DNA of 64,000 nucleotides from a virus, in IMG/VR virus record IMGVR_UViG_3300042348_000780. One strand, 5' to 3'. This document shows, one piece after another, positions 123-20,482 of this stretch. Both the position numbers and the translations under genes were made by a program. The stretch's first letter is position 1. The number at the start of each line of letters is the position of its first letter. A model generated the notes under the pieces. It ran no database searches and was not told the DNA's origin. It worked only from the letters and a program-made list of their open reading frames with translations.

Positions 123-650
123 TTACTGTGATCGTCCACGGACGACGATCCAGATAAGAGCCTGCATTGCCGCAGGTTCCCAACCGTGCATCCGCGCAAC
201 TTCGCGCACGGATTCCGCGAGTTGCAGATATTGCGTCTTATTGACAATCTTCGATGGATGCTGAGCCGCTTTCAGCATCCACGTATCAATCACTACGGCT
301 TCCCCGTCGCCTGAAATTGCACGGGCGAAGTTATTCGTCTTCAAGCCGCGCAATGCACGGAAGCCTTCAGACCTTGCGGCTTCCGCGTTACGAATGGATG
401 TCCGAAGACACTTGACACTTTCGCCTGACACGAACGAACGTGCCAGTTGTACATTGCGGCTCCACGTCACACGTGGAGAGAATGCGGAAATCACACTTGC
501 GGCCTGCTCATATGAGAGCGAATTGTCGAGAAGTTTGAGTTTCGCGCATTCGGTATGAGCCAACTCATACCAACGACAGGCTTCCAGTTGCTGTCCGAGG
601 TTCGATGAAGATGCGAGATTGTGAAAGAGAGTTGTGGGGGAAGTAGCCAT
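123..650 (-). CDS. Phage protein, possibly HhH-GPD DNA glycosylase-like fold
   Basis: 175 aa with WY..AH, SAFSP..W..N, G.KT..F, VVIDTWM and MQALIW motifs; own promoter directly upstream. Confidence 0.6.
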   Translation of the reverse strand: MATSPTTLFHNLASSSNLGQQLEACRWYELAHTECAKLKLLDNSLSYEQAASVISAFSPRVTWSRNVQLARSFVSGESVKCLRTSIRNAEAARSEGFRALRGLKTNNFARAISGDGEAVVIDTWMLKAAQHPSKIVNKTQYLQLAESVREVARMHGWEPAAMQALIWIVVRGRSQ

Positions 651-2702: not shown

Positions 2703-3023
2703 TTATTCTTCGAGGTCGAAATAATCCATACCAGAGTCAGTATGTCGAACCTTATACCATTCAAGGCCCTTCGAATATTGACGAATTTGATCTACCGTCA
2801 ATTCGACACCGCGCAATTCGCGCGGAATATCCAACTCCAATGTAGCAACGGCATTCGCGTAGGCGGCAACGTGCAGAGGCACGTTGCCGATAATATTGCG
2901 ACTACGCGCATCCTCTTTCGAGATATGCTCGACTACCGTTCCCGTGATTCCGTATCTTTCCCGAAGATACGTAACAAGGGCGGCATGTCGAGTCACAATG
3001 AGAGTTTCGATGTAGTAGGACAT
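2703..3023 (-). CDS. Csx16 (Cas_VVA1548)-like protein, candidate cOA ring nuclease / anti-CRISPR
   Basis: VTRH near the N-terminus, IIGNVPLHVAA and LDIPRELRGVELT match the Csx16 pattern (vTRH...vIGtLPvhlAA...ldlp.elRG.EL). Confidence 0.75.
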   Translation of the reverse strand: MSYYIETLIVTRHAALVTYLRERYGITGTVVEHISKEDARSRNIIGNVPLHVAAYANAVATLELDIPRELRGVELTVDQIRQYSKGLEWYKVRHTDSGMDYFDLEE

Positions 3024-3095
3024 TTGTTAGCCTTCCGTTAGGATCTGTCGTGGGCCGAATTGCCCGTGCATCGGACGAAGTTGCCCGATTCTAGT

Positions 3096-3124
3096 ACCCT
3101 ACCCGATTGTCTTCAGACTGTCAA
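3096..3124 (-). promoter_or_regulatory. sigma70-type promoter
   Basis: TTGACA-17-TAGGGT. Confidence 0.6.
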
Positions 3125-3135
3125 GCGACCTAGAG

Positions 3136-3207
3136 TTATCCACAAGGTATCCACAAGGCCAAACTATCAACATTGGGGGCCAAAGGCCCAATACCAATGT
3201 TGATAGT
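3136..3207. repeat. Repeat unit 7
   Basis: TTATCCACA 3136, GTATCCACA 3147; palindrome 3163-3207 identical to that of unit 3. Confidence 0.95.
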
Positions 3208-3220
3208 ATTTGAAAGGCTT

Positions 3221-3238
3221 GGGAGGCCGAAGCCTCCC
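3221..3238 (-). terminator. Terminator-like cUUCGg hairpin
   Basis: Minus strand GGGAGGC-TTCG-GCCTCCC. Confidence 0.6.
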
Positions 3239-3245
3239 GTGAAGT

Positions 3246-3395
3246 TTAAGTGTATCCATCCATCGATCTAGTGATGCTCTCAATATTAGCAGCATCTTCA
3301 TCGATTTGTCTGGCAATTTCCTCTTCACAATCTTCATATGGGTCGAAGTCATCGCCCCACTCGTCGTCCGTCTCTGAACGTTTCTTCGGTTTCAT
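3246..3395 (-). CDS. Small acidic protein (49 aa), not in ORF track
   Basis: Manual translation MKPKKRSETDDEWGDDFDPYEDCEEEIARQIDEDAANIESITRSMDGYT*; GAAAGG upstream; stop falls just before the terminator hairpin. Confidence 0.7.
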   Translation of the reverse strand: MKPKKRSETDDEWGDDFDPYEDCEEEIARQIDEDAANIESITRSMDGYT

Positions 3396-3469
3396 GGTAG
3401 CCTAGCCTTTCGTTCGGTCTGAAGTGGGCCGAATTGCCCTTGCATCGGACGGAGTTACCCGATTCTAGT

Positions 3470-3498
3470 ACCCTACCCGATTCTATTGAGAGTGTCAA
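3470..3498 (-). promoter_or_regulatory. sigma70-type promoter
   Basis: TTGACA-17-TAGGGT. Confidence 0.6.
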
Positions 3499-3509
3499 GC
3501 GACCTAGAG

Positions 3510-3544
3510 TTATCCACAGGATATCCACATCGTACTATCAACAT
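3510..3544. repeat. Repeat unit 8 (terminal half-site)
   Basis: TTATCCACA 3510, ATATCCACA 3521, ACTATCAACAT 3534-3544 with no complementary arm. Confidence 0.9.
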
Positions 3545-3793
3545 CCAGCCTCGTTATATGGTCACGTTTCTAAACCACGTCACAGGACAGTGAAATTGAC
3601 AAAAGGGAACCCATCCCCTTTAGCCGCTTGCGAGTCCCAAAACCCTAACACACCCAAAATTCCTATTAAATTATAATGGGACTCCCAGACCTCAAAAATT
3701 TTTTCTGGGAAAAAAATGCTCTATTAGCGTTTTCTAAATATATTAAATGAAGCATTTAGCCTGATCTCCTACATTATAGAAAGGAAAATAAAT

Positions 3794-4168: not shown

Positions 4169-4654
4169 ATGAAATCATTTAAGCATTATTTAATTGAAGT
4201 ATTAACTTTTAAAAATAATTCATCCTGGGCATATCATCCAGATACAGGTTTTGCTCATGAAAAAAGTGGAGCAAGAGAACATTTTGATGTTTTTCCTCAT
4301 CTAGAATTTATGGATCGAGGAAAGGAAGCAGACGAAAAACGTAGAATACCTCAACGTAAAAGAATTCCAGCACAATCTTGGGGAAGAGTAGATCACGATA
4401 ATCGTATTGTACATATAATTACTCAGAATGGTCAAATGGTTCCATCAAGTAGACTTACTGGAAAAAGACTTGAAGATGATGTATTTAATAGAATTACCGC
4501 AGTAAAACATATTCGACAACATTTTCCTGACTATAGAATTCATGTTAGTGGTCATCAACAACCTGGATATGGCGACAAAGTAACCACGGATATCACAACT
4601 CATAATTATGATGAACATCTAAAACATTTAACTGGTCTTTTGGCTGATAAATAA
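4169..4654 (+). CDS. Putative capsid-targeted internal protein
   Basis: N-terminus MKSFKHYLIE. Confidence 0.65.
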   Translation: MKSFKHYLIEVLTFKNNSSWAYHPDTGFAHEKSGAREHFDVFPHLEFMDRGKEADEKRRIPQRKRIPAQSWGRVDHDNRIVHIITQNGQMVPSSRLTGKRLEDDVFNRITAVKHIRQHFPDYRIHVSGHQQPGYGDKVTTDITTHNYDEHLKHLTGLLADK

Positions 4655-4659
4655 AATAC

Positions 4660-5214
4660 ATGAAATCCTTTAAGCAATATCTCTCAGAAGCAGGAAAGCT
4701 CTATAGGTTTGATGATAAAATACTCATCCCGAAAGCCCAGACTTATGCATTTTCTCCAGATGGTACAGGTTCTGGTAATGTAGAAAATAATGTTGGATGG
4801 GTTCCCCCAAAAGACTGGAAAGAAAAAAAAGGATTGTTTGCTGGTCAATATCACCATGTTCTTTCGTATGCTGTTCCTAGATCTACCAGGTGGCTCGTAA
4901 CGGGTAAGAGAACAAAAGAAGAGAAACCAACTATACATTTCACAGAAGATGACAGAGAGGCAATAAACGCCCATAGACCAACAATCTCTCAATATAATGT
5001 AAGACAAGGGTTTGAAAGATCTCAGGCTAATAGCGGTGAATATTTTGCTCAGGCTGATAAGGCTCCTTCTCCCATCTCACAAAAAACAATAGAAGATCCA
5101 ATAGAACATATTAAAAAACATTTTAATGTTAACTTTGTTCCAGATCTTGATCGTCATAAAAGAGATTTAGATGCACGGGGAATCAATTATAATGCAGAAG
5201 GAGATTTTAATTGA
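4660..5214 (+). CDS. Putative capsid-targeted internal protein
   Basis: N-terminus MKSFKQYLSE; GATAAATA late-promoter-like motif 6 nt before ATG. Confidence 0.65.
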   Translation: MKSFKQYLSEAGKLYRFDDKILIPKAQTYAFSPDGTGSGNVENNVGWVPPKDWKEKKGLFAGQYHHVLSYAVPRSTRWLVTGKRTKEEKPTIHFTEDDREAINAHRPTISQYNVRQGFERSQANSGEYFAQADKAPSPISQKTIEDPIEHIKKHFNVNFVPDLDRHKRDLDARGINYNAEGDFN

Positions 5215-5678
5215 AATCCTTTAAGCAATATCTCTCAGAAGCCAGACCAACAGGCCAAAAAAGATATCAAAGAGACATTTCTAAATTAGAAACTCGACTT
5301 GATAAAATGTATGCTGCTGGTGGTTCTCAGAAAAAAATAGACAGGGCCGAGATGAGACTTGCCAGGAAAACGAATGAAGGTGAATTTGACATTGATGATC
5401 AAAGACTTCCAAAACTAAAATCTACAGAATATCACCTTGAAGTCGAGGAACATCCAATGGCCATGTCTCTTGATGAATTAATGAGAGAAAAAGCCAAGAA
5501 AATTCATACTCATAATTATACACATGGCATGGTGGGTGCAGAGATTCGTTCAGGAATAACTGACTTAACATACAATCCTGGTCTGAAGGCAGATGTTACT
5601 GATGAGCAACTTGGACAAGAGGCTCATAGAATGTTCATGGCTCATGAGAATATGAAATCAAGAATTAAAAAGAAATAA
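5211..5678 (+). CDS. Putative capsid-targeted internal protein
   Basis: TTG start, MKSFKQYLSE; 31 nt identical to the start of the preceding gene. Confidence 0.65.
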   Translation: MKSFKQYLSEARPTGQKRYQRDISKLETRLDKMYAAGGSQKKIDRAEMRLARKTNEGEFDIDDQRLPKLKSTEYHLEVEEHPMAMSLDELMREKAKKIHTHNYTHGMVGAEIRSGITDLTYNPGLKADVTDEQLGQEAHRMFMAHENMKSRIKKK

Positions 5679-5698
5679 ATAATAATAAAGGATATTAT

Positions 5699-6235
5699 AT
5701 GGATTGCAATAAATCAAAAATGAAAAAGAAGAAGTACATGAAAGAAAATGAAGAGTTTATGGCTTTAAAAGATTATTATAAAAATATTTTATCAGAAGCC
5801 ACAAGAGCAATAGCTCAAAGAACCGACTTGATTGATTTTAATCCAAGAGATGTTCATGGTAATAAAAGAAATCCAATAGATTATCCATTTAAAAAAACAG
5901 GAGAAAGTAGAGGAATTTTAGGTTTTGTACAAGGTAAGCCAGCTCCACGATTCGTAAATCCAAAAGATACTGCAAGATCTAGACCTCCTAGAACTAAACC
6001 ATCAGTAGATAAAAAGGGAAGAGATAAAAGACTTAAATATAAAATTGCAACTCTTAGACCTAGAATGAATTATGATCCAGAAACAGGTCTTAATTTTGCT
6101 GCTGATGCACTAGAGCGTAGAGGTTTTGAAGTTCCACCAATAGATCCTAAAAATTTGCCGCCTTTTCATGAAATTGAACAAGCATACGATATACAACATT
6201 TCAATCGCGCAAGGGGAAATAAATACTTTAAATAA
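5699..6235 (+). CDS. Basic hypothetical protein, possible internal protein
   Basis: Internal MALKDYYKNILSE resembles the N-terminus of 3794-4159. Confidence 0.55.
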   Translation: MDCNKSKMKKKKYMKENEEFMALKDYYKNILSEATRAIAQRTDLIDFNPRDVHGNKRNPIDYPFKKTGESRGILGFVQGKPAPRFVNPKDTARSRPPRTKPSVDKKGRDKRLKYKIATLRPRMNYDPETGLNFAADALERRGFEVPPIDPKNLPPFHEIEQAYDIQHFNRARGNKYFK

Positions 6236-6257
6236 GTATTTTTAAACAAATAAAAAG

Positions 6258-6287
6258 AACAGTGTCTTCCATAGACACTGTTTTTTT
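6258..6287 (+). terminator. Rho-independent terminator
   Basis: AACAGTGTCT/AGACACTGTT stem followed by a T run. Confidence 0.8.
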
Positions 6288-6300
6288 CTAAATATACTAT

Positions 6301-6636
6301 ATGAAATCCTTTAAAATATATCTTCAAGAGGAATCAGAAAGGCAAATGCGTCTTGGTGATTTTGTCGAGGTTGGCACAAATGTGAAAGATCCTCATTTTT
6401 ATATTGTTCGTCGGGGTGCTGAACATGAAGTCGGTAAACCAACAAAAAAACCCAATCCACAGCATTTTGGTTTCAGAGTGATTAATACAGATAGTTTAGA
6501 TCCAAATTATGCTTTTTACATGATGCAACATATAGCAAATACTGGTCATTATAAACAATTTGCAACTGGTTCTACAAAACTTGTAAATATTCGAGCAAAT
6601 CATATTACAGATATTCCTCTGGGGATAAGACAATGA
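6301..6636 (+). CDS. Putative internal protein resembling a single type I R-M HsdS target-recognition domain
   Basis: MKSFKIYLQE tag, then MRLGDFVEV...LDPNYAFYMMQ...ATGSTKLVNIRANHITDIPL. Confidence 0.55.
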   Translation: MKSFKIYLQEESERQMRLGDFVEVGTNVKDPHFYIVRRGAEHEVGKPTKKPNPQHFGFRVINTDSLDPNYAFYMMQHIANTGHYKQFATGSTKLVNIRANHITDIPLGIRQ

Positions 6637-6836
6637 AATCATTTCAACAATATATCAAACCAGCATCAACTGGAATTGAAGAACCACTCCCTCGGGGTTT
6701 TAGTGTTATAACACCAACAGTTCCAAAACCAAAAGGTATTCCAATAAAGGCACAGCCAGCTCCTAAACAACAACCAAAACAACCATCTACATTTGCTGCC
6801 ATATTAGCCAGAGCCAGGGAACTCGCAAAGAAATGA
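6633..6836 (+). CDS. Small Pro-rich protein with internal-protein-like N-terminus
   Basis: MKSFQQYIK; ATGA overlaps at both ends. Confidence 0.55.
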   Translation: MKSFQQYIKPASTGIEEPLPRGFSVITPTVPKPKGIPIKAQPAPKQQPKQPSTFAAILARARELAKK

Positions 6837-7435
6837 AATCCTTTAAAGAATATCTTATAGAAAACCCTATATTAGAACCACCAAGGGATGAATTTGTTAG
6901 ACCAAATATACGAACAGAATTACCAAAGGCTCATTCAGATCTATATTCTTTGGGTTCTAGTGTAATCGATGGTAATGAATATCATTTTCATGGATATTCT
7001 TCAAACAAAGACTCACCCTTTACTCAAGAACGATTACACAGTGGCTATGTGACGATGAAAGATTCTCAAGGAACACATAAGGTTGTTGGTAATACTGATT
7101 TCTATCCTCATGATTCTGAGCATAATACTTATTATTCAAATTTTCCAAAATTAAATAAAGAACATACTGGTAAAGGATTGATGTCTGAACTCTATAAGAG
7201 ATGGGCAGATCATAACAAATATACATTGATTTCTGGGCGTGTTCATACTAGAGGTGGTAAGAATATATGGGCCGAGTTGTCTCAAAAAGGTACGGTCACG
7301 GCTCATGACACGAACAGAGAAGGTAGTCGCCCTATAGTGTATGATTCTAATAATCCAAAACATTATACTAAATTCTATACAGCTACAAGAACTTCAAATC
7401 CAATACGATGGTTATTCAAGTATAAAGGTAAATAA
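6833..7435 (+). CDS. Putative internal protein, GNAT-like
   Basis: MKSFKEYLIE; LNKEHTGKGLMSELY resembles GNAT motif A; T.GGKNIW. Confidence 0.55.
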   Translation: MKSFKEYLIENPILEPPRDEFVRPNIRTELPKAHSDLYSLGSSVIDGNEYHFHGYSSNKDSPFTQERLHSGYVTMKDSQGTHKVVGNTDFYPHDSEHNTYYSNFPKLNKEHTGKGLMSELYKRWADHNKYTLISGRVHTRGGKNIWAELSQKGTVTAHDTNREGSRPIVYDSNNPKHYTKFYTATRTSNPIRWLFKYKGK

Positions 7436-8232
7436 TGAAATCTTTTAAACAATATATTTCTGAAGATATATTAGGTGGATATGATCCAGAAGTAACACAT
7501 GATGAAAAACCACCAGAGAAAAACATTAAATCTTTAGATGAATTAGTCAAAAAGTTGGGTAATAATTATACACATGATCCAGAATCACAAAGAGTTGATT
7601 TGAATGATAAATTTCATATTCGTTATAAAAAATTCTCTGAGTCAGATTCGAGTGGATATACAAAGCATCATTTAAATGTTAATGTATTTTCAAATGCACC
7701 TGGTCATGAAAACACATCTTTAGCAACATATCGTCTTTCACATGATAACTACAGTGTTGTAAAAACACCAGATGGCAAAGAAATAAAAATGTTTTCTGGT
7801 AATCCACAGAAAAAAACAAGAGATGTAAAGAGTGGAGTATTTGAACTTCCACATAATTTCTTACATACTATAGCCAATGCTACAGGATATGGAATTATGA
7901 GTGGTGATATTCAGAGTCCTGGTTCAGTTCATATGTGGAGAAAAGCAGTACAACACGGACATGAAAATGATCATCATGTAGGAAAATTTATACACACTTC
8001 AGAAGAACCATCTAGACCTAGAAAATTTGGACAACCAAGAGTTATTAAATTACAATCACTTGGAAAGATAACACCGTCAACATTTCAGGATGCCTATACT
8101 GGAGATGTTTCAACTGATCGATCTGGAAATACATCAAAAGTTATTAAAAATAAATTTGATCTACCACATGGAGTAGATACTGAAGGAATGATAACAAGAG
8201 ATGAAACTCTCTTAGGAATATTACCAAAATGA
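7435..8232 (+). CDS. Putative internal protein, possibly degenerate GNAT-like
   Basis: MKSFKQYISE; IMSGDIQSPGSVHMW parallels LISGRVHTRGGKNIW in the preceding gene. Confidence 0.55.
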   Translation: MKSFKQYISEDILGGYDPEVTHDEKPPEKNIKSLDELVKKLGNNYTHDPESQRVDLNDKFHIRYKKFSESDSSGYTKHHLNVNVFSNAPGHENTSLATYRLSHDNYSVVKTPDGKEIKMFSGNPQKKTRDVKSGVFELPHNFLHTIANATGYGIMSGDIQSPGSVHMWRKAVQHGHENDHHVGKFIHTSEEPSRPRKFGQPRVIKLQSLGKITPSTFQDAYTGDVSTDRSGNTSKVIKNKFDLPHGVDTEGMITRDETLLGILPK

Positions 8233-11949: not shown

Positions 11950-12022
11950 GCCCCTATAACTCAGTTGGTAGAGTAGAAAACTTTTAATTTTAAGGTCGTA
12001 GGTTCGATCCCTACTGGGGGCA
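11950..12022 (+). tRNA. tRNA-Lys(UUU)
   Basis: GCCCCTA/TGGGGGC acceptor, ACTC/GAGT D stem, CT-TTT-AA loop, GTAGG-TTCGATC-CCTAC T arm; CCA not encoded. Confidence 0.9.
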
Positions 12023-13045: not shown

Positions 13046-13120
13046 GCGCCGTGGGAGGTCTTGGTTATCTCAGTTCGACTTATAATCGAATAAGACTTGG
13101 TTCGATTCCAAGACGGCGTA
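13046..13120 (+). tRNA. tRNA-Ile(UAU)
   Basis: GCGCCGT/ACGGCGT acceptor, TTCGA/TCGAA stem with CT-TAT-AA loop, CTTGG-TTCGATT-CCAAG T arm; atypical D arm. Confidence 0.8.
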
Positions 13121-14874: not shown

Positions 14875-14949
14875 GCGGGTGTATCGGCTCTGCCTTCTAA
14901 GCAGAAGTACCGTAATTGGATGATGTAGGTTCGATCCCTATCACCCGTG
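14875..14949 (+). tRNA. Atypical tRNA-Arg(UCU) lacking a D arm
   Basis: GCGGGTG/CACCCGT-G acceptor; TCTGC-CT-TCT-AA-GCAGA; GTAGG-TTCGATC-CCTAT; only 7 nt between acceptor and anticodon stems. Confidence 0.7.
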
Positions 14950-18236: not shown

Positions 18237-19130
18237 ATGAGTTCATTTAAAGATTTCAAGAACAAGTCAAAGAATAGTATTAGTGATCTTATGAAGAAGT
18301 TGGATGAATCATCCAAGAAGGATTACAAGGATGATCGTTTCTGGCGTTTGGAACAAGATAAGATGGGAAACGGATTCGCAGTGATTCGGTTTCTCCCAGA
18401 AATCAACGGTGAAGAATGCCCATGGGTGAAGCTTTTTTCACACGCATTCCAAGGACCAGGTGGTTGGTATATTGAAAATTCTCTTACAACCCTTAACCAA
18501 AAGGATCCAGTAAGTGAGTTGAATACTCAACTTTGGAACACTGGTTCTGAAGAAGATAAGAATATTGCACGAAATCGTAAGCGCAAGACAACATATATTT
18601 CCAATATCCTTGTAATTAAGGATGAAGCAAATCCTCAAAATGAAGGTAAGGTTTTCTTGTTTAAGTATGGCACAAAGATTTTTGATAAGATTCAAGAAAA
18701 GATGAAGCCAGAATTTAAGGATGAGGAACCAATTAATCCATTTGATTTTTGGGGTGGATGCAACTTCAAGTTGAAGATGCGTAAGATTGGTGGATATACA
18801 AATTATGATAAGTCTGAATTTGATTCACCAAGTCCTCTTTTTGGTGGGGATGATGCAAAGATTGAAACTATTTGGAATAAGCAAAATTCATTGAATGAAT
18901 TCATTGCTCCAAATAATTTCAAGTCTTATGATGATCTCAAGAAGCGTCTTTATGATGTTCTTGGTGGAGATATTCGAGGCAGTGCTGGTAATGAAAAGAC
19001 TGCTGAAGATCTTGATGAAAATGATTTCCAACAAAAACCATCAAGTCTTAAGCAAAAGCCAAAGGCAGAAGATTCTGCTGATGAAGAAATTGATGCATTA
19101 AGTTATTTTGAACAATTCAAAAACGCTTAA
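18237..19130 (+). CDS. gp32: Single-stranded DNA-binding protein gp32
   Basis: DDRFW...GNGFAVIRFLP...HAFQGPGGWYIENSLTTL...GCNFKLK...NYDKSEF; acidic tail. Confidence 0.97.
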   Translation: MSSFKDFKNKSKNSISDLMKKLDESSKKDYKDDRFWRLEQDKMGNGFAVIRFLPEINGEECPWVKLFSHAFQGPGGWYIENSLTTLNQKDPVSELNTQLWNTGSEEDKNIARNRKRKTTYISNILVIKDEANPQNEGKVFLFKYGTKIFDKIQEKMKPEFKDEEPINPFDFWGGCNFKLKMRKIGGYTNYDKSEFDSPSPLFGGDDAKIETIWNKQNSLNEFIAPNNFKSYDDLKKRLYDVLGGDIRGSAGNEKTAEDLDENDFQQKPSSLKQKPKAEDSADEEIDALSYFEQFKNA

Positions 19131-19147
19131 TCAATAAAATCCATTAA

Positions 19148-20482
19148 TTATCCGACAGTCGTTCTCCATTCTGGAGGCGACTGTTTTTTTATTGCTGAAC
19201 TAGTGAATAAAGGAGCATCTATTTTTTCTTTTATTAACAAATCTGGTTTATATAGTTCATCAATTTCTTTTACAGATATTTTATTAGATACTTCAGATTT
19301 TGTAATTTCATTCATAGGAATTAAAGGCTTGTCTGGATTATATCCTTCCTCTATTTCCATTTTATTTTTAGATTGTTCAGAATCTGATTCTAATGTGCTA
19401 GTTGGTTTATTTATTGAAAGATTCGTATTTGGTGTATTTTTCATCAATCGTTCAGAAAATGATTTAGATTCTTTTTGACTTAAAATAACTTCACCTTTAT
19501 GAATCTTACCTATACTTTCGGTTGTGGTAGGACCACCAGTACCTTCTTGGTAAGCTGGTAGTGCATATATTATTTTATTTTTTTCTATATTAGTTGGATT
19601 AAATTTAGAAAAATTTATTACATAATTTTTATTTTGAATTTGTTTATTTGAAATTAAGTTATTTTTATTCACATACGATGTATGATTTTCAATCTTTTGA
19701 ATATTTGATCTTTGAGATTCAATTTTATTTTTGTTTAATTTTACATTATTACTTTTTTCAATAACGGTTTTATTTAATTGTATATTATTACCTTTTTCAA
19801 TAACGGTTTTATTTAATTGTACATTATTTCCTTTTTTAAGATCGGCTTTATTTAATTTTACGTTTTTTTGTAATTTTTTAAGTTGTTCTTTAGAAGGAAT
19901 TGTTATTTTTTTCTCATCAATTTCAAACTCTTGATTGTAAATATTTTGTATATTTAAATTTTTAATTTGTTCAGGTTTTGTAATTAATTTTATATTATAA
20001 TTTTTGAATAACTCAAAAGTTTTATTTGTATTTTTTGAGTTATTGATATTTTTATTTAAAATAAATTTTGAACTTGAGCTTTCTGATTTATTTGGTTCTA
20101 GAGAAATTTTATCTAATTGATGTTTTTCTATATTTTTTTGATTATAACCAATATTTTTTGCGTTTTTCTTATCATATTCCAATTTAAGTGGTTGTTTTTT
20201 ATCAGATTTGCTAGAAATTGATGAATAAGTTATAATATTATTGATTTTTTCTATATTTTTTGGTTCAAAATTTTCATTTTTTATATTTTTTACAACAATA
20301 AAAGATTTATCTTTAGTATTAGCAACTACTTTATCAAATGTTTTTTCATTATTTTCTTCTGATGGAACATTTTTAATTAAATTAATAGAATTATTAAAAC
20401 TTTCGACTTGTATTAGTCTTTTAAAAAATAATTTTTTAAGTTTATTTTTTAGTTTTTCGAATTCTATTTTTTTATTTTTCAT
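19148..20482 (-). CDS. Lys/Asn-rich protein, possibly tape-measure/baseplate-hub related
   Basis: Follows gp51; LPAYQEG.GG...IHKGEVIL motif; 13-aa repeats. Confidence 0.45.
   Translation of the reverse strand: MKNKKIEFEKLKNKLKKLFFKRLIQVESFNNSINLIKNVPSEENNEKTFDKVVANTKDKSFIVVKNIKNENFEPKNIEKINNIITYSSISSKSDKKQPLKLEYDKKNAKNIGYNQKNIEKHQLDKISLEPNKSESSSSKFILNKNINNSKNTNKTFELFKNYNIKLITKPEQIKNLNIQNIYNQEFEIDEKKITIPSKEQLKKLQKNVKLNKADLKKGNNVQLNKTVIEKGNNIQLNKTVIEKSNNVKLNKNKIESQRSNIQKIENHTSYVNKNNLISNKQIQNKNYVINFSKFNPTNIEKNKIIYALPAYQEGTGGPTTTESIGKIHKGEVILSQKESKSFSERLMKNTPNTNLSINKPTSTLESDSEQSKNKMEIEEGYNPDKPLIPMNEITKSEVSNKISVKEIDELYKPDLLIKEKIDAPLFTSSAIKKQSPPEWRTTVG
19733..19870 (-). repeat. About 3.5 tandem 39-bp coding repeats
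   Basis: KNVKLNKADLKKG / NNVQLNKTVIEKG / NNIQLNKTVIEKS / NNVKLNK. Confidence 0.75.

Follow-up and report, generated by a model that had tools for sequence, protein, structure and literature searches.

The 64-kb stretch of DNA analyzed here, referred to as the window, belongs to a bacterial T4-like phage from water and carries a conserved Csx16-type gene on its minus strand. This gene is a mobile-element variant of Csx16 whose product, by analogy with characterized ring nucleases, probably dampens type III CRISPR signaling by cleaving cA4 as a dimer and without a metal. It is an intact 106-codon open reading frame at 2703-3023 (-), with the ATG at 3023-3021 and the TAA at 2705-2703, and its 106-aa product contains the Cas_VVA1548 domain at residues 9-92. 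The initial annotation had proposed a candidate anti-CRISPR ring nuclease, and this was the best-supported reading, because the gene is viral, stands alone, is under purifying selection and has kept the invariant polar residues of its family. As in the AcrIII class, the gene is encoded by a mobile element, here a T4-like myovirus, and the clade to which it belongs consists mostly of IMG/VR contigs.

At the sequence level, membership of the Pfam Cas_VVA1548 domain family is secure. The PF09652 profile, which has a gathering cut-off of 25 bits, matched the 106-aa protein with 58.5 bits and an E-value of 7.8e-16 over profile positions 2-90 of 91. In PADLOC, three Csx16 models and one Csx1-Csx16 fusion model were matched, with E-values of 3.9e-15 and 6.5e-10 for Csx16 models. 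All three motifs that had originally been quoted as the Csx16/Cas_VVA1548 pattern were found in the protein, VTRH at residues 10-13, IGNVPLHVAA at 45-54 and LDIPRELRGVELT at 64-76. The residues that are invariant in the family (R12, H13, H33, G46, P49, R71, G72, E74 and L75) are all present, and across 78 aligned viral, plasmid and type III-linked members the T/S-R-H motif, H33, G46, P49 and R71-G72-x-E74-L75 are invariant or nearly so. No family for this protein was found in PHROGs. The comparison with Csx16 profile HMMs was nevertheless divided, since PF09652 and the PADLOC models supported the assignment, but the narrower Csx16 model of NCBIfam, TIGR02620, scored the protein at 19.9 bits, below its curated cut-off of 46.35. 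The window protein thus falls outside this CRISPR-associated equivalog, both by score and by genomic context. As Pfam membership is secure and membership of TIGR02620 fails, the gene is described here as a mobile-element variant of Csx16.

The phage origin of the DNA, which had been assumed at the outset, was confirmed by a set of T4-type genes. These include a Gp20-type portal, Gp23 capsid, gp19 tube, gp15, gp32 and UvsY, together with a late-transcription coactivator, a terminase, a sheath and a baseplate wedge. The capsid protein showed no more than 59% identity to its counterparts in T4-like Synechococcus phages and the Methylophilales phage Melnitz. No close DNA relative of the window was found in the deposited phage collection, and a search by DNA with the region was likewise empty. 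In the nearest related record (G001) the family was absent, the region of the Csx16 gene lying outside the coverage of that record. The earlier statement that there are no cas genes nearby was borne out for all 76 open reading frames of the 64-kb window, amongst which the Csx16-like gene was the only match to a cas family. Weak matches to Cas9, PtuB and REase all came from one HNH-domain protein.

Genuine type III-linked copies of Csx16 were available for comparison from a scan of GTDB genomes, which gave eight loci. The gene is located between Cas10, RAMP and a Csx1-CARF gene in L017, between Cas10, RAMP and Card1 in L019, and adjoining Cas_NE0113 in L021, so that all three are bona fide type III-linked copies. 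Their identity to the window protein is 26-31%, and R12, H13, H33, G46, P67, R71, G72, E74 and L75 of the window protein are present in every one of them. The window protein also resembles CRISPR-associated Csx16 in its small size, in having the whole domain of ~90 residues, and in its T/S-R-H, H, GxxP and R-G-x-E-L motifs, but the gene differs in being phage-encoded, with no cas genes in 64 kb. A profile-profile comparison of the two Csx16 groups with hhalign gave a probability of 99.5% and an E-value of 4e-22 over 98 columns.

A maximum-likelihood tree of 78 sequences separated two clades with 100% SH-aLRT support. The CRISPR-type clade has six members (the three type III-linked copies, two other cellular copies and one IMG/VR contig) and the other has 72 (59 from IMG/VR, 10 from metagenomes, two from MAGs, and the window), proportions that mean little because the sampling was biased by the search patterns. 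Members of the CRISPR-type clade have a 4-residue insert after the position of window residue 56, which is absent from the window protein, and score 75-118 bits with TIGR02620, compared with 18-36 bits for the sampled members of the other clade. The split of Csx16 into two clades was robust, and the distribution of the clade of 72 on phages and plasmids makes 'mobile-element branch of Csx16' the most fitting name for it. One IMG/VR contig, of 111 kb, encodes at L080:9908-10291 a Csx16 of the CRISPR type, which has the insert and scores 89.8 bits with TIGR02620; this may be a phage copy or host DNA in a viral bin.

When phmmer was run exhaustively against 1.84 billion cluster representatives, it returned 1037 matches at E<=1e-3 and 244 at E<=1e-10, counts that include a few spurious ankyrin-repeat proteins. 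Several of the homologues among the matches listed have the domain in duplicate or are extended by further sequence, and natural tandem-duplicated homologues of ~200 aa exist, which fits a two-domain working unit. The larger contigs with relatives at 39-52% identity to the window protein were phage-like. One of these (L012) encodes a holin, an M15 endolysin, Bro-N, pRha, Thy1 and PolA, with the Csx16-like gene heading a rightward block of small genes, while L006 is made up of 25 successive small genes in one orientation, almost none of which has a Pfam match. Topoisomerase, HNH and TnpB genes were found on L008/L009, which also encode a relative. On L010/L011, a Macro-domain gene (L010:6551-7398, L011:2100-2947) is located immediately upstream of the Csx16-like gene and a NADAR gene 4 kb downstream, a grouping on a large, phage-like contig that may represent a counter-defense cluster.

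A scan of IMG/VR with the window protein as the single query detected no close relative, and a scan with two peptide patterns taken from a narrower alignment identified 65 viral loci. According to Pfam, the 149 nearest open reading frames of 37 viral loci are of kinds usual in phages, among them Cro/CI-type HTH, small terminase, lysozyme, integrase and methylase genes; these 149 neighbors contained no cas family except one further Cas_VVA1548 copy, and no recurrent anti-defense partner. Amongst 50,697 deposited phage records, tblastn with three mobile-element-clade queries, one of them the window protein, found nothing, and a CRISPR-type Csx16 query of the same records found only Methanobacterium virus Drs3 and PhiF3, at 32-38% identity. 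A published survey of 28,114 phage genomes recorded Csx16 in 2, Csx20 in 4 and AcrIII-1 in 36 (PMC12409355), and its two Csx16 genomes are probably those of Drs3 and PhiF3. Their Csx16 is virus-encoded like the window gene, but Drs3 and PhiF3 are archaeal viruses and were detected by the CRISPR-type query.

In PLSDB, the window protein matched three plasmids. The copy on Deinococcus proteolyticus pDEIPR02 (L088, positions 19115-19399 of the record) is without the 4-residue insert and belongs to a long row of small genes that all point the same way, most of them hypothetical but including two SSB genes and a DUF4326 gene. The plasmid is conjugative, of type MPF_T. No cas genes are annotated within 9 kb of it. 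The surroundings of this copy resemble the anti-defense-rich leading regions of conjugative plasmids.

Four near-identical relatives of the window protein, at 79-95% identity, were all metagenomic. The dN/dS of the window gene was 0.08 against the L001 orthologue (dS 0.75) and 0.05 against the L003 orthologue (dS 0.40), indicating strong purifying selection. The L001 orthologue is located on a 7.8-kb contig that has its cassette units, its GC contrast and its DUF7178 genes in common with the window; the units of L001 flank partly different genes. At 1335-1721 of this contig, the gene encodes 128 aa because the final ~25 codons of a 49-aa open reading frame have been joined in frame to its 3' end; in the window, that open reading frame precedes the Csx16-like gene at 3246-3395 (-). 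This in-frame C-terminal fusion provides direct evidence of inter-cassette recombination. The residues at the fusion junction are acidic, EE(E).

An AlphaFold2 model of the window protein, built on a 42-sequence alignment (pLDDT 91.7, pTM 0.79), consists of alternating strands and helices. Its best structural neighbors were AcrIII-1/Crn2 proteins (DUF1874), and CARF proteins (Cad1-CARF, Can1) ranked lower. Foldseek comparison of the model with the PDB and BFVD gave no significant match, and sequence and profile searches of the PDB found no Csx16 structure, only designed ankyrin proteins through one short motif. DUF1874 is also the nearest solved fold of the published Csx16 (PMC12409355), and the model agrees with an earlier remark that Csx16 resembles DUF1874 in part (PMC8284326). 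The initial annotation had placed the protein in a different family from AcrIII-1. By sequence this holds, but the best structural neighbors of the model are AcrIII-1 and Crn2 themselves, and for this reason the folds of the Csx16-like protein and AcrIII-1 may be distantly related.

The link between Csx16 and cOA degradation, which the initial annotation had mentioned, is now experimental. Ring-nuclease activity was predicted for Csx16 and Csx20 in 2020, and both proved active on cA4 in vitro in 2025 (Hoikkala et al. 2025, PMC12409355); the assayed Csx16, of the CRISPR type, was strictly cA4-specific and Csx20 also cut cA3. AcrIII-1 is the established viral ring-nuclease anti-CRISPR, with a dimer that buries cA4 and His47 as the general acid. 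An anti-CRISPR role has also been proposed for copies of Crn4 on phages and plasmids. Crn4 and Csx20 are thus, like the window gene, CRISPR ring-nuclease families with mobile-element copies proposed as anti-CRISPRs, but their folds are unrelated or only distantly related to that of the window protein, and Crn4 has a broad cOA specificity.

Following these precedents, the phage would produce a stand-alone ring nuclease of the Csx16 fold that destroys cA4, the second messenger of type III complexes sensing phage RNA. We infer that the window protein dimerizes, takes cA4 as its substrate and acts on it catalytically, early in infection and in a host with a type III system. By analogy with Csx16 and AcrIII-1, the homodimer would bind one cA4 molecule across a face lined by R12-H13, H33 and R71-G-x-E74. 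Cleavage would proceed by metal-independent in-line attack of the ribose 2'-OH, with a conserved histidine as the putative general acid, and would convert the ring into linear A2 products. Once cA4 had been destroyed, the effectors that it activates (Csm6/Csx1, Can1/2, Card1) would stay off.

The nearest alternative is that the protein binds cOA as a sponge with little turnover, or prefers another substrate such as cA3, cA6 or a CBASS-type or other defense signal, which we consider unlikely. The mobile-element clade does differ from the assayed CRISPR-type Csx16, by the 4-residue indel near a conserved loop and by TIGR02620 scores of 18-36 bits, and small CARF-like proteins related to it vary in activity, as illustrated by Csx15, which binds cA4 well yet works very slowly as a nuclease (PMC13148439), and by Csx20 (PMC12409355). 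However, in the viral clade the two histidines and the R-G-x-E motif hardly vary, a pattern more in keeping with retained catalysis than with binding alone. It has also been argued that a sponge is ill-suited to the large amounts of cOA made by type III systems (PMC13148439), and the one Csx16 assayed accepted cA4 only (PMC12409355). A role outside defense signaling, on another RNA or nucleotide substrate or in the modulation of a host protein, would reduce the Csx16 fold to a matter of ancestry, and is improbable in our judgment. A precedent comes from the AcrIII-1 homologue SIRV2 gp37, which in a study of the native system was reportedly expressed too late for anti-CRISPR function, inhibited a host lysine methyltransferase and lacked native anti-CRISPR activity; moreover, the host of the window phage may be without type III CRISPR, and the neighbors of the gene in its cassette are uncharacterized. 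Against such a role, none of the residues invariant in the type III-linked enzymes has been lost from the window protein. Members of the clade are also found repeatedly in the early or accessory regions of many phages that are unrelated to one another, as well as in a stretch of plasmid resembling a leading region, and such a distribution is expected of counter-defense genes.

The designed ankyrin repeat proteins found with phmmer and with the family profile, at E-values down to 4e-6 when summed over repeats, raise a further reading, in which the gene encodes an ankyrin-repeat-like protein or is a chance open reading frame. The matching segment is D-x-R-x-R-N-I-I-G-N-V-P-L-H-V-A-A, and the JGI name of one orthologue (P0002) is 'ankyrin repeat protein'. 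This likeness is, however, confined to one motif of ~27 residues, with no Pfam Ank match, whereas Cas_VVA1548 spans the whole protein, and the model has a beta-strand followed by a short helix at this place instead of the ankyrin helix pair. A chance open reading frame is contradicted by the dN/dS values of 0.05-0.08 and by hundreds of homologues. On the basis of Pfam coverage, the model and dN/dS, both identities were rejected as extremely improbable, and the ankyrin matches in the PDB were judged to be convergent. Within residues 37-64, G-x-(L/V)-P-L-H-(L/V)-A-A mimics the ankyrin consensus T-P-L-H-L-A-A so closely that both designed ankyrin proteins and large ankyrin-repeat proteins appear among phmmer matches, which is a trap for automatic annotation.

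The setting of the gene would allow its exchange between related phages as a cassette. Bases 1 to ~3700 of the window have a GC content of 45-48%, compared with ~30% for the genome. Here at least seven small genes, all on the minus strand, form an array in which neighboring genes have conserved units of 110-160 nt between them. The array runs past the left edge of the window. Ahead of every gene come a conserved palindrome, a pair of DnaA-box-like 9-mers and a promoter-like module (TTGACA/TAGGGT). Upstream of the Csx16-like gene, the cassette boundary is marked by the palindrome, a stem-loop with a 14-bp stem at 3160-3216 (-; predicted RNA fold, -28.1 kcal/mol). The two DnaA-box-like 9-mers, TTATCCACA (a perfect site) and GTATCCACA, are at 3136-3155 (+), directly upstream of the -35 element. 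The sigma-70-like promoter spans 3096-3124 (-), with the -35 TTGACA at 3124-3119, a 17-nt spacer and the -10 TAGGGT at 3101-3096, and a Shine-Dalgarno-like GGAAGG at 3031-3036 (-) is placed 7 nt 5' of the ATG. On the other side of the gene, a short G+C hairpin resembling a terminator (2675-2691, -; ~-10 kcal/mol) starts 11 nt past the stop codon and is followed by the conserved palindrome of the next cassette boundary at 2619-2675 (-; -31.4 kcal/mol for 2615-2680).

Conservation of the regulatory module was evident from its repetition. The promoter module is kept in four cassettes, and a 26-mer across the second DnaA-like box and the -35 is identical in all four, when 0 would be expected by chance. 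In addition, 8 of the 9 perfect TTATCCACA sites of the 64-kb window are located in its first 3.5 kb, compared with 1.26 expected for the whole window. The -35 of the Csx16-like gene is good and the -10 weak, and the promoter was not called by a consensus scan because the -10 fits the consensus at 3 of 6 positions only. At the sequence level, the gene does have the promoter of its own that had been ascribed to it, and this putative promoter, with its weak -10, may be of the early type.

The array has the hallmark of the PeSL (promoter-early stem-loop) cassettes, with a composite stem-loop and an early-type promoter flanking small variable open reading frames in a T4-like genome. In T4-type phages, PeSL cassettes mediate gene shuffling (PMC2839356, PMC4122927). 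The window array is similar to these in that small accessory genes are flanked by such elements in a hyperplastic region of a T4-like genome, and in that it, too, contains evidence of shuffling. It differs in having longer units (~110-160 nt) with two DnaA-box-like 9-mers each, and in its GC content of 45-48% inside a genome of 30% GC. As a self-contained unit of the PeSL type (stem-loop, two DnaA-box-like sites, sigma-70-like promoter, ribosome-binding site, open reading frame and hairpin), the cassette would allow early expression by the host RNA polymerase and the swapping of genes among related phages. Searches of the neighboring cassette genes in Pfam, PHROGs and the ESM Atlas identified only DUF7178/phrog_3842 and uninformative structural neighbors, and gave no support by association. 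The array repeatedly carries DUF7178 (PF23802, phrog_3842; no assigned function), at 123-650 (-) of the window and at 3029-3553 and 4297-4854 of L001, and no mention of this domain was found in the literature searched.

Type III CRISPR systems are among the few defenses that still work against phages with modified or shielded DNA and, as a consequence, phage countermeasures to the cA4 signal shape who wins. To our knowledge, only a few viral ring-nuclease families are documented. The idea of a phage Csx16 as an anti-CRISPR is already published in outline, given the 2025 proof of ring-nuclease activity, the two phage genomes, and the standing of viral ring nucleases as an established anti-CRISPR class. 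What is new is a large phage and plasmid branch of Csx16 set apart by a split with 100% support, the 4-residue indel and sub-threshold TIGR02620 scores. The gain is incremental, since the mechanism and the concept were published before. Together with the IMG/VR and plasmid matches, the window gene shows a separate mobile-element branch of Csx16 to be common in uncultivated viruses. Should its members prove active, the branch would rank beside AcrIII-1 among the major classes of enzymes directed against type III systems and would be a useful marker of phage exposure to cOA signaling. A bolder proposal, to which we give little weight, is that the phage and plasmid clade is a distinct and very widespread counter-defense family missed by studies of isolate genomes, with a substrate range of its own (for example, broader cOA or non-CRISPR cyclic nucleotides), and that in aquatic T4-like phages it is carried in the GC-rich DnaA-box cassette array as a platform for exchanging anti-defense genes.

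Other features of the window were also observed. At 4169-8232 (+), seven consecutive low-GC genes, starting at 4169, 4660, 5211, 6301, 6633, 6833 and 7435, share the near-identical N-terminus M-K-S-F-(K/Q)-x-Y-(L/I) and then diverge, and no known family was found in any member scanned. Calls of tRNA genes disagree at 11950-12022, 13046-13120 and 14875-14949. ARAGORN reported tRNA-Lys(ttt) and, at 13046-13120, tRNA-Ile(tat), while Rfam, at its gathering threshold, reported the first of the ARAGORN tRNAs and a different tRNA at 14875-14949.
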